Position numbers: made by a program
In this document: positions 56,301 through 59,300 of the stretch, one piece after another
Position numbering within the stretch: position 1 is the first letter of the stretch
Layout: every line of letters starts with the position of its first letter
Assembly: GCF_044324875.1 (NCBI RefSeq)
Contig: NZ_CP172186.1
DNA: 64,000 nt
Strand: one strand, 5' to 3'
From: Escherichia coli
GTDB lineage: Bacteria; Pseudomonadota; Gammaproteobacteria; Enterobacterales; Enterobacteriaceae

Positions 56301-59300
56301 AATATCAGATATTGTTTTATCATCAATGATGAAAACCATATCTGATATGATTTTATATATATTTCTTAATTATCATATCATTTGCGTCTTTTCTGCCGCG
56401 CAGATCCGGTTTCCGGCTAAGTCGGATCGACCTAATCTTTGTTTCTGATATGAACACCTCGGAGAGGTGTAAGCAATGGTATAAACGAAATGTATTATGT
56501 ATCTGCATCACAGCATGCGGGCACATTTTGCGGAAGGATATGAATCCCCCCGGAATAACTGGCAAAGGACAGATAAATGGACATTGAAATACGCCACTGC
56601 AATAACATCGTACGAGCACATATCACCCTCACTGCCGATAAACTGAACATTAAGTTTGCGCCAAATGGTACTGGAAAAAGTACGCTGTCACGGGCCATAA
56701 GCTGTGCGGCGCGGGACGACATTCAGGGACTACAGGCACTGATGCCCTTCCGGCTGCGCGGAGAAAACCCCGATAGCACCGGGCCCATTGTCATCGGTGC
56801 TGACGGGATTGGGGACGTGATGTGCTTCAACGAGGAGTACGTCAGTCAGTTTACGTTCCAACCGGACGAGCTCATCAGTGATAGCTTTAATATTCTTATC
56901 CGCAATCAAGCCCATGCGGAAAGAGAGCGTGAAATAGAAGAAATGACGCAAAAGATCCGGGCTGTTTTCACGGATCACACTGAGCTGAACTCTCTGATAG
57001 ACCATCTACAGGAACTCAGTAATGCTTTCAGATCAACCAGTTCCGGGATTTCACGTTCTTCAACCGGCATGAGAGGTCTGTCAGGCGGAAATAAAATACA
57101 CCACATTCCGGCTGGTCTTGAGAACTATCAACCCTACATCCGCAGTGAACGCCGCGTGGAATGGATTGACTGGCAGACAAAGGGACTCGAGTTTTCGCCC
57201 CTTTCGGATGGCTGCTGTCCGTTCTGTACCGGTGATATCACGGGAAAGGAAGCACAAATTCGCCAAGTCAGAGAGGAATACGATAAATCCACCATTAAAA
57301 ACCTGACCGCTATCATCAGACTGGTGGAAAACCTCGGTAATTACCTGACGGAGAGCGCCAGAGAACGCCTTCTGGCCATTACTATGCTTCAGAACGGTCC
57401 GGAAGCCGAACATATCGAGTACCTAGTGGCGTTGAAACGCCAGACCGATACGCTGACAGAGAAACTCACTGCGCTGAGAGGCCTGAATGTTTTCAGCCTG
57501 CAGGAACAGCAGAACGTTCGGGAGGTGCTCACTGCCAGGTTGATTGACCTGCAGTTCTTCCCTGATCTGCAATCCGAACTCATGCAGGGGATCACCGACA
57601 GACTGAACGCGGCCCTTATGGACCTGATAAACCTTGCCGGACCGCTGCAGGGAAAAATTAACCGGCACCGGGACAGCATGATCCGGCTGATCGCACAGCA
57701 CAAAACAAACATCAATAATTTCCTCACTTATGCAGGCTATAAATACAGGGTGGATATAGCCGGCGAGGGAGAGCAGAGAAAACTCAGGCTACGACACATA
57801 GATTTTGACGGGTACGTCAGCGGCGGTAGCCAGCATCTCAGCTATGGAGAACGGAACGCCTTTGCGATTGTGTTATTCATGTATGAATGCCTGTCAAAAA
57901 ACCCGGGACTGATTATCCTTGATGATCCCATATCTTCTTTTGATAAAAACAAGAAGTTTGCCATTCTTGAAATGCTGTTCAGACGTGCAAGTGGTGAATG
58001 CCTGAAGAACCGGACTGTACTTATGCTGACGCATGACGTGGAGCCTGTGATTGACACGCTGAAGTCAGTCAGAAGGTTGTTCAGTAATCAGGTGACCGCC
58101 TCCTGCCTGCGCCTGTCTGCTGGAGTCATAGAAGAATTACCTGTTAACGACGGCGATATCATGACATTCATGCAGATCTGCAAATCCATCACCGCGTCAG
58201 CAGACTGTGAGGAGATCATTAAGCTCATCTATCTTCGTCGCTACTTTGAAATCGTTGACGAACGTGGTGATGCTTATCAGCTTCTATCCAATCTATTCCA
58301 TCGACGCGTCGTCCCGCTGGATTATCGCGAGCCTGCCGCTGCGGGCTCGGGCTATCCCAAAATGGCTCCTGAGAAAATTCAGCAGGCCTTGCGGGATATC
58401 CGGGAGTATGTGGACAGTTTTGATTACCCGCGACTTCAGGCTCTCGTCAGCAGCCCAGATGAAATAAAAAACCTGTACCGTCGCTGTCGTAACGGCTATG
58501 AAAAACTGCAGGTATTCCGTTTACTGGAACTGGATCAGGACCATCCGGTAATACGAAAATTCGTTAACGAAACGTACCACATTGAAAATGAGTTCATCTG
58601 TCAACTAGATCCGTCCAGATTCGATCTCATCCCGGAGTACGTGATTATGGAATGTGACAAGCTCATCGCCCTGCCACCGGCAGCAAACCAGAGCTCGGTT
58701 GCCCGTATCGCTTGAGCCACTGTTTTTGCCGCCGGAAGATAGGCTTTAGCTCCCTGATAGTCTGATCTTCGAAGATACCCTACAGTTTAGGACCGCTTAC
58801 TGTAGATATCTGTTAAAACAGCCCGTATACGGGCTGTTTCTTGGTGCCCTTATCTCCTGACTTTGAAAAGAGTGTCTTACTTCACCCAGTCTTCCAGCAC
58901 CAGGTCAGGCACTCGCTCAAATTCTCTTGTATTATTCGTTACCAGTATCGCCCCGGCGGCGATGGCGTGCCCGGCAATCGCCGTGTCGTTCGGGCCGATC
59001 GGCGTCCCGGCCAGCCGCAGTGCCACTTTAATCTTCGTGGTGGCGTCTACTGCGGCGCGATCCCAGGGCAGGATGGCATCGAGGCGGGCGCAGAATTCAT
59101 CGACCAGTTGGACGTGACGTGGTGAGGCCTTTGGGCCGGTAGCCCCGAAGCGCATTTCAGAGTAGGTGATGGCCGAGACCACTATACGGTGGCCGCGTAG
59201 CACCGCCTGCTCCAGACGCTTCAGGACGGCTTCTGGCTGTTCACGCATGATGAACGAGCAGATACAGGTATCAAGCATATAAGTCTTGTTCACAGGTTAA

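Follow-up and report, generated by a model that had tools for sequence, protein, structure and literature searches.

The 64,000-nucleotide stretch of Escherichia coli DNA analysed here (assembly GCF_044324875.1, contig NZ_CP172186.1; hereafter the window) carries, at 56577..58715 on the plus strand, a gene for a 712-residue ATP-binding cassette (ABC) ATPase. By analogy with the anticodon nuclease RloC, we consider it rather probable that this gene by itself constitutes a single-protein defence system of the ABC-ATPase/HEPN kind, which acts by abortive infection with an RloC-like mode of action. The protein joins a split ABC head and a hook-bearing helical insert to a C-terminal domain of its own; residues of the ATPase, of the hook and of the C-terminal domain are conserved in its homologues; no partner gene is conserved next to them; and a share of them is embedded in restriction–modification (R-M) or BREX operons. 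The prediction of a defence role is already public, since the protein is a member of the PADLOC group PDC-S06, and the find is less novel than a first-pass annotation of the window implied, because the family had been published as a candidate. What we add is a tentative HEPN/PrrC-like assignment of the tail, for which candidate catalytic residues are named, together with evidence that the system consists of one gene, a quantified embedding in R-M and BREX loci, and the prevalence of the gene on plasmids.

The open reading frame (ORF) listing of the window gives the gene an ATG start, preceded at a distance of 8 nt by a Shine-Dalgarno-like AAGGA. The copy is intact: its product is 100% identical to WP_000350638.1, publicly annotated as "AAA family ATPase" only, and to the sequence that represents a protein cluster of 1587 members. 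Translation of the exact sub-ranges reproduced every motif named in the first-pass annotation, all on the plus strand: the Walker A motif or P-loop APNGTGKST (56658..56684), the zinc-hook-like CxxC in CCPFC (C214-P-F-C217; 57213..57227), the ABC signature LSYGE (57837..57851), the Walker B motif and D-loop LIILDDPISSFD (57909..57944) and the H-loop or switch histidine LTHD (58026..58037), beyond which stand about 225 residues. Conservation was assessed in an alignment of 45 diverse homologues that are 28–53% identical to the query. K34 of Walker A, C214 and C217 of the hook, L421 and S422 of the signature, D449, D450, P451, S454 and D456 of the Walker B/D-loop stretch and H486 of the H-loop are invariant, while 90% or more of the sequences keep P215. 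Because they are invariant at such a degree of divergence, the ATPase and hook motifs are not chance strings.

The PADLOC hidden Markov model (HMM) PDLC04889, one of those grouped under PDC-S06, matches the protein over its full length (E 4.8e-286, 948.8 bits, residues 1–698 of 712 against profile positions 1–688 of 693); this match, together with the homologues embedded in R-M and BREX operons, bears out the earlier proposal of a defence candidate. PDC entries are phage defence candidates of the "guilt-by-embedding" sort, genes picked out by their location inside defence systems already known and released through PADLOC (Payne et al. 2024 preprint). PDC-S06 comprises 13 HMMs, among which PDLC04889 alone shares the C-terminal domain of the present protein. 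The papers found to name PDC-S06 list the prediction only, and our literature search yielded no experimental test of PDC-S06 or WP_000350638. At the level of the ATPase, weaker PADLOC matches were obtained with LmuB (E 7.3e-14, residues 114–490; the best outside the family), mad3, AriA, AbiLi and PrrC. Pfam AAA_13 (PF13166; PrrC/RloC-type ABC ATPases), which is also the precomputed Pfam family of the protein cluster and is likewise carried by real PrrC homologues, matches both halves of the head (residues 418–489, E 6e-9; residues 21–137, E 1.3e-4). Only the ATPase parts align: positions 572–713 of the AAA_13 model are unmatched, and Pfam is blank on the last 220 residues of the protein. Among the PHROGs, the protein matches PHROG 2801, a family of unknown function; despite this match, a tblastn search of 50,697 phage genomes returned nothing.

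An AlphaFold2 model of the full-length protein, built from 40 sequences (mean predicted local distance difference test score, pLDDT, 81.6), predicts a bipartite ABC head whose two halves are separated by a helical insert of about 280 residues (residues ~103–385; 56883..57731, plus strand), most of which falls within the stretch that the LmuB HMM aligns. The best PDB fold matches of the model are the heads of SMC, Rad50, RecN, RecF, MukB and JetC; PDB sequence searches with the protein, with a profile of its C-terminal domain and with a full-length profile retrieved generic ABC motifs only, the C-terminal domain matching nothing. The CxxC is placed in a loop (residues 209–219, pLDDT <50) flanked by two helices of the insert (residues 193–203 and 225–234), and the helical arms on either side are short and unequal, with about 100 residues before the hook and about 160 after it. 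The model therefore supports the description of the protein, first given from its motifs, as a Rad50/SMC-like split-head ATPase with a hook-like CxxC; the CxxC presumably binds zinc, and the arms presumably form an antiparallel coiled coil. This architecture also bears on the names found in some automatic annotations, which call such proteins ATP-binding subunits of ABC transporters (EcfA2, cobalt, Mn/Zn or peptide transporter ATPase). NCBIfam transporter models do match, but only along the signature/Walker B stretch, over some 80 residues and about 10-fold below the curated cut-offs; the head is split by the ~280-residue helical insert as in SMC and Rad50, and no permease gene is adjacent. 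The likelihood that the gene encodes a transporter ATPase is negligible, and that reading was rejected on the architecture.

The C-terminal ~190 residues were modelled with confidence (pLDDT 93) as an all-alpha domain (residues 524–700; 58146..58676, plus strand), which we regard as HEPN-like and as the predicted RNase effector. A profile of residues 492–712, searched against 1.84 billion representative proteins, retrieved 525 clusters. In the full-length matches listed, the domain ends proteins of about 700 residues with the same architecture; because every one of them has this architecture, the domain is specific to the family. The earlier remark that the last ~230 residues carry no recognisable motif holds in that no Pfam family, no PDB sequence and no PADLOC model but the family's own was matched, while the effector, then left unassigned, can now be described tentatively as HEPN-like. 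Matches to RiboL-PSP-HEPN, SAV_6107-like HEPN, TM1812/Csx1 and further Apea-like and DUF4145 proteins appear farther down the ranking for this domain; DUF4145 belongs with HEPN.

The 45-sequence alignment further revealed a set of invariant or near-invariant residues in this domain: R554, R555, E558, S571, K643, R648, K661, E665, H668, E670 and N671. H668 and N671 show no variation and K661 occurs in 44 of the 45 sequences, the adjacent R660 being variable. H668 is the only invariant histidine; H575, 16 residues beyond E558, is not conserved in the family as a whole. Two motifs that hold some of these residues recall PrrC. In EcoPrrC, R320, N321, E324, R349, N352 and H356 are each essential, and R320, E324, R349, N352 and H356 are conserved in RloC (PMC3025547). 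PrrC homologues were retrieved, several of them named "anticodon nuclease" in their source, and 24 were used to build a profile of the PrrC C-terminal domain; their nuclease domains carry LLRNLYE and RIINFTSH where the present family has, in the same order, YLRRYFE and KFVNETYH. In the first of these, RRYFE (58236..58250, plus strand), the invariant R554 is separated by three residues from E558 and would correspond by order to R320-x3-E324. In the second, KFVNETYHIEN (58557..58589, plus strand), K661-x2-N664-x3-H668, followed by E670 and N671, would correspond to R349-I-I-N352-F-T-S-H356. The canonical HEPN motif Rx4-6H is replaced by K661-x6-H668, which keeps the spacing and the asparagine of R349-x6-H356. 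On the strength of the weak fold matches and of the motif order, we tentatively propose, with moderate confidence, that the C-terminal tail is a divergent HEPN-type RNase domain with an insertion of about 75 residues.

Several results weigh against an RloC-like nuclease. Pfam searches with 41 member sequences gave no consistent match on the C-terminal domain, which thus has no Pfam family and, as mentioned above, no sequence match in PDB either. When the C-terminal domains of 10 members were compared with PADLOC at E values up to 10, only the family's own HMM responded, and none of PrrC, ApeA, other HEPN models or the 12 other PDC-S06 HMMs. Comparisons with hhalign of the C-terminal domain and that of PrrC gave E 0.09–0.13 with a probability below 1%, which is not significant; PrrC was represented once by a single sequence, which the PADLOC PrrC HMM recognised (E 7.7e-148), and once by the profile of 24 homologues. 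The sole local alignment obtained pairs LRRYFE with LRNLYE, at E ~0.1. Moreover, the arginine of the motif is replaced by lysine in 44 of 45 sequences, and the R349K substitution inactivates PrrC (PMC3025547). The interval from glutamate to histidine is 109 residues, compared with 31 in PrrC and 36–52 in the definition of RloC (PMC2610378): with respect to the RloC triad Arg-X3-Glu-X36-52-His, R554-X3-E558 is present but H668 lies 109 residues on, and is preceded by tyrosine rather than serine. At the other end of the protein, a hooked coiled coil of the Rad50 type is not certain, because the arms are short and unequal. Finally, PDC-S06 is explicitly a label for predicted candidates, not a characterised system.

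To place the family in its genomic setting, one genome per species was scanned, which yielded relatives in at least 422 species of many phyla; all flanking ORFs of 80 loci, also from many phyla and including candidate phyla radiation (CPR) bacteria, were then clustered. No neighbour family is found in more than 8 of the 80 loci (at most 10%). The recurrent neighbours are HsdS (8 loci), HsdR (7), HsdM (6), an AlbA_2-type protein directly downstream (6), type III Mod (4), Fic (4), a DUF45-type metallopeptidase (4), the BREX-1 proteins PglX (5), PglZ (4) and BrxL (4), and a divergent SbcD/SbcC pair (5); NCBIfam confirmed the identities of HsdR, HsdM, PglX, PglZ-A, BrxL, SbcC, SbcD and Fic. An R-M or BREX system adjoins the gene in 19 of the 80 loci (at least 24%; 14 with type I/III R-M and 5 with BREX-1), a lower bound as only recurrent families were counted; among the 40 loci flanked by 3 kb or more on each side, the number is 10. 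A separate set of seven contexts of ~55%-identical homologues gave a similarly varied picture. One homologue shares 4 bp with res, a gene of a type III R-M operon; another lies in a type I operon with the order hsdM, Bro-N, hsdS, DUF2188, ATPase gene, AlbA_2, an unidentified gene and hsdR; one adjoins a TIR_2 gene and another an nSTAND3 gene; one is followed by an overlapping 387-residue gene that has no Pfam match; and two of the seven are solitary insertions between housekeeping genes. The family is thus a single-gene module that frequently lies inside restriction-type systems or is attached to their end.

The absence of a conserved partner gene from the 80 species loci indicates a single-protein system, from which the IS91-family element upstream of the present copy removed no partner. 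The first-pass annotation had left the choice between a single protein and an orphan created by IS91; only the former is retained. The hypothesis of a displaced partner was rejected, as the DNA that IS91 replaced relative to plasmid pO83_CORR consists of two small hypothetical ORFs on the opposite strand, which do not recur elsewhere. In another reading the protein is a sensor or regulator without a nuclease of its own: the ATPase/hook module would sense DNA or the state of R-M or BREX complexes, and the C-terminal domain would be a non-catalytic docking or RNA/DNA-binding module, the protein acting in trans through another one such as host R-M, BREX or the VapC encoded next to it. The C-terminal domain has no significant sequence similarity to any nuclease family searched, a lysine stands for the arginine essential in PrrC, and non-catalytic HEPN domains exist (Anantharaman et al. 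2013); in addition, overlap between the gene and the final gene of an R-M or BREX operon is frequent and suggests that the two are physically coupled. Against this, the invariant histidine and the conserved arginine, glutamate, lysine and asparagine, arranged in the order of PrrC, resemble a catalytic site, and about three-quarters of the loci, including clean single-gene insertions between metabolic genes, lack a recurrent neighbour, which is hard to fit with an obligate partner. We consider such a regulator unlikely.

Some details of these loci deserve mention. The nearest thing to a recurrent partner is a protein of ~450 residues of the AlbA_2/SLFN-like type, encoded 12–48 nt downstream of the ATPase gene in 5 loci and carried in 6 in all, always inside type I R-M operons (L020, L033, L068, L095 and others in our numbering), yet absent from most loci and from the window. 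In four unrelated genomes the homologue starts at −10 to +11 nt from the end of brxL in a BREX-1 operon (PglX, PglZ type A and BrxL), and in three of these four brxL-adjoining loci, as well as in a Legionella metagenome-assembled genome, divergent sbcD and sbcC come 12–18 nt after the homologue, so that BREX, ATPase and SbcDC look like a co-transferred block (L017, L021, L028 and L070, and also L024, around locus coordinates 6000–15000).

The proximity of sbcDC raises the question of housekeeping DNA repair, the gene being then a paralogue or a fragment of SbcC, Rad50 or RecN. The predicted head fold resembles those of Rad50, SbcC and RecN, PHROG 77 (SbcC-like) gives a weak match (E 5e-6), and divergent sbcD and sbcC are adjacent in 5 of the 80 loci. 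However, the other 75 loci have no Mre11/SbcD partner, nor is there an SbcD gene in the window; NCBIfam gave generic ABC matches only, all below cut-off, with no SbcC, RecN or Rad50 among those listed and a weak RecF match (E 6e-4) far below its cut-off. Furthermore, the gene has a patchy, accessory distribution, being carried by about 10% of E. coli genomes and nearly always on a plasmid, and the protein ends in a family-specific domain which Rad50 and SbcC lack. A repair function is very improbable, and the SbcC-fragment reading was rejected for want of a curated model match, on the patchy plasmid distribution and on the extra C-terminal domain.

Among characterised proteins, the preferred reading of an ABC-ATPase/HEPN defence protein finds its closest parallel in RloC, a wobble-nucleotide-excising anticodon nuclease (Davidov & Kaufmann 2008, Klaiman et al. 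2012), with which the comparison was made from published descriptions. Both are single polypeptides with an N-terminal ABC head that is split by a helical insert bearing a conserved CxxC, all ABC motifs (Walker A, signature, Walker B/D-loop and switch histidine) being invariant or nearly so in the present family; both have a C-terminal all-alpha domain, putatively of nuclease type here, with an Arg-x3-Glu ... Asn-x3-His pattern, match AAA_13 and are laterally mobile. Both, too, are mostly stand-alone, a minority being located in type I/III R-M loci (8 of 72 for RloC, PMC2610378; at least 14 of 80 here). The present protein is shorter (712 residues against ~800 or more), its hook comes earlier (residue 214 against ~291 in GkaRloC) on shorter, unequal arms, the C-terminal part of the AAA_13 model is unmatched, and the nuclease activity is a prediction, in addition to the differences in glutamate–histidine spacing and in the essential arginine described above. 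The RloC-type resemblance noted at first sight is thus upheld by AAA_13 and by the PrrC-type order of the motifs, with a triad spacing other than the one that defines RloC. The protein was not filed as RloC because of that spacing, because homology of the C-terminal domains is not demonstrated and because it has no known activity.

PrrC, the tRNA-Lys anticodon nuclease guarded by the EcoprrI type Ic R-M system, also combines an ABC ATPase with a C-terminal HEPN-class RNase (predicted in our case), carries AAA_13 and the motifs LLRNLYE and RIINFTSH in the order of their counterparts here, and resides in hsd operons, as do some members of the present family. Yet PrrC has ~396 residues and no coiled-coil or hook insert, whereas the present protein has 712 with an insert of ~280; PrrC is always linked to R-M and kept silent by the R-M enzyme, whereas most members of the present family stand alone, and no hsd genes lie near this copy. 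Profile–profile similarity of the C-terminal domains is not significant (E 0.13), and H295, H315 and the LARP motif of PrrC have no evident counterpart. The presence of the insert and the lack of an obligatory hsd linkage exclude an assignment to PrrC. The SMC-like ABC head with its helical insert is shared with LmuB of Lamassu and with Rad50, SbcC and SMC, but the effector or nuclease of Lamassu, Rad50 and SbcC is a separate subunit (LmuA, Mre11, SbcD), whereas the putative effector is fused here, and the arms fall far short of the length seen in Rad50. Lamassu is defined by LmuB together with LmuA and LmuC; the LmuB match is partial and no neighbour is conserved. The family also resembles the ABC-HEPN families of the APECO1_4465 and ERFG_01251 types, in which an ABC ATPase precedes a C-terminal HEPN domain and which are found in mobile islands of E. 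coli and other bacteria (Anantharaman et al. 2013). RloC-like ABC-HEPN proteins sometimes lie beside R-M, Fic/Doc or Pgl/BREX genes (Anantharaman et al. 2013), and Fic and BREX neighbours are likewise encountered here. APECO1_4465 itself was not found in two 50-kb stretches (100 kb in all) of the APEC O1 chromosome, sited by an estimate from gi numbers.

A mechanism can be sketched in which the activating signal, the RNA that is cut and the abortion of infection are drawn solely by analogy, RloC providing the precedent of an anticodon nuclease governed by a zinc hook and a DNA-dependent ATPase (PMC2610378, PMC3458546). The N-terminal SMC/Rad50-like head, the helical arms and the CxxC hook would act as sensor and switch, and hook-mediated pairing, together with the nucleotide state, would keep the protein inactive. 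Upon encounter with DNA ends or phage DNA, or when restriction or BREX function is lost during infection, ATP binding or hydrolysis might alter the geometry of the head dimer, which would bring together or unmask the C-terminal HEPN-like domains. These would cleave RNA without metal ions, by means of H668 with R554, E558, K661 and N664; tRNA anticodon loops would be the most likely target. Translation would then halt, leaving the phage or the incoming element unable to multiply.

A possible but doubtful extension of this scheme is that the family represents a third, mechanistically distinct class of ABC-ATPase/HEPN proteins. The Lys-for-Arg site and the ~75-residue insertion between the catalytic helices would in that case go with a new RNA target or cleavage chemistry, and the hook/ATPase part would read the integrity of a restriction or BREX complex, or DNA ends, in cis within operons and in trans from IncF plasmids. 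If so, a plasmid-borne "guard" of host restriction would be present in roughly one E. coli strain in ten.

The window copy belongs to a widespread plasmid gene. An identical gene is present in 542 of 5426 complete E. coli genomes (~10%), 1231 of the 1249 matching places being on plasmids. In PLSDB, 653 plasmids of Escherichia, Salmonella and Klebsiella, the majority of them conjugative, hold at least 80% of the query. The carriers of the gene are conjugative virulence and resistance plasmids of the IncF/ColV type, and over ~2.7 kb around the gene the window is 100% identical to pO83_CORR (from E. coli NRG 857C) and to numerous other plasmids of that type. A 544-residue form in Klebsiella variicola and others (P0008 in our set; 92% identical over 76% of the query, 896 member sequences) may be a truncated version widespread in Klebsiella.

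This plasmid bias could point to a weapon used between mobile elements, in the manner of Wadjet or Lamassu, that recognises incoming plasmid or conjugative DNA and excludes rivals or stabilises the IncF plasmid. Most of the plasmids concerned are conjugative, the 50,697 phage genomes hold no match, the closest relative that PADLOC offers outside the family is the Lamassu protein LmuB, and the gene adjoins the plasmid-stability genes vapBC and parA. Outside Enterobacteriaceae, however, the gene is found chiefly on chromosomes and lies within R-M and BREX operons, and the effector resembles an RNase, not a DNase. We therefore regard a weapon of this kind as distinctly unlikely; it overlaps the explanation that we favour, the mechanism being the same and the trigger different.

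Should the protein prove to be an RNase that is active in abortive infection, it would influence how susceptible its hosts are to phages, a point of relevance to phage therapy against avian and extraintestinal pathogenic E. coli and Salmonella; it would add a fitness function to IncF/ColV-type plasmids and offer, beside RloC, a second and compact model of an SMC/Rad50-like hook switch acting on a fused RNase. The repeated placement of the gene at the 3' end of R-M and BREX operons makes it a handy case for the "backup of restriction" idea. Although we do not expect the family to surprise a specialist, it is a good, abundant and easily tested candidate.

The immediate flanks of the gene agree with those first reported, with one refinement. 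NCBIfam confirmed both neighbours, an IS91-family transposase upstream (E 8.4e-87) and a vapC–vapB pair downstream (E 1.8e-35 and 1.6e-27, respectively), but the IS91-type element ends near 56215 and is not directly beside the gene: homology to pO83_CORR starts at 56216, leaving 361 bp of native upstream DNA intact (56216..56576, plus strand). This region probably holds the promoter and the ribosome-binding site of the ATPase gene; a promoter and terminator scan found there four weak sigma-70-like sites at 56238–56381, no excess over the expectation from shuffled sequence. A scan of 52000–64000 against Rfam found no family, and small antisense ORFs within the ATPase gene are without support. 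The listed IS91 ORF (55047..56339, minus strand) overruns the element, the IS91 model aligning only from ORF residue 60.

The block common to the window and pO83_CORR (56216..59706) comprises the ATPase gene and vapBC, which travel together on hundreds of plasmids. Encoded at 58877–59520 on the minus strand and convergent with the ATPase gene, VapC is of the tRNA(fMet)-specific endonuclease type, and this 3.5-kb block may thus hold two tRNA-directed toxins side by side. Past vapBC, pO83_CORR (L001, 12517–17061) continues with a hypothetical gene, a TIR-domain protein, a KAP-family P-loop NTPase and pifC, a stretch that resembles a defence island; in the window, homology to pO83_CORR stops at 59706 and an integrase and parA come next.

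Farther from the gene, two plus-strand ORFs of 94 and 91 residues (53980–54264 and 54264–54539), which overlap by one base and have no NCBIfam match at E 1e-5, look by eye like a ribbon-helix-helix antitoxin and a RelE/ParE-type toxin. On the minus strand, 49738–52534 holds an ABC importer operon (ATPase, permease and periplasmic binding protein) whose GC content of 58–66%, as opposed to ~50% in the flanking plasmid DNA, suggests a foreign origin; we take it to resemble the eit iron-uptake operon of ColV plasmids. Lastly, a 150-residue ORF that matches no family (60041–60493, plus strand) overlaps by ~100 nt the start of a tyrosine recombinase ORF (60390–61280, plus strand), the true start of which is probably downstream of the listed TTG.

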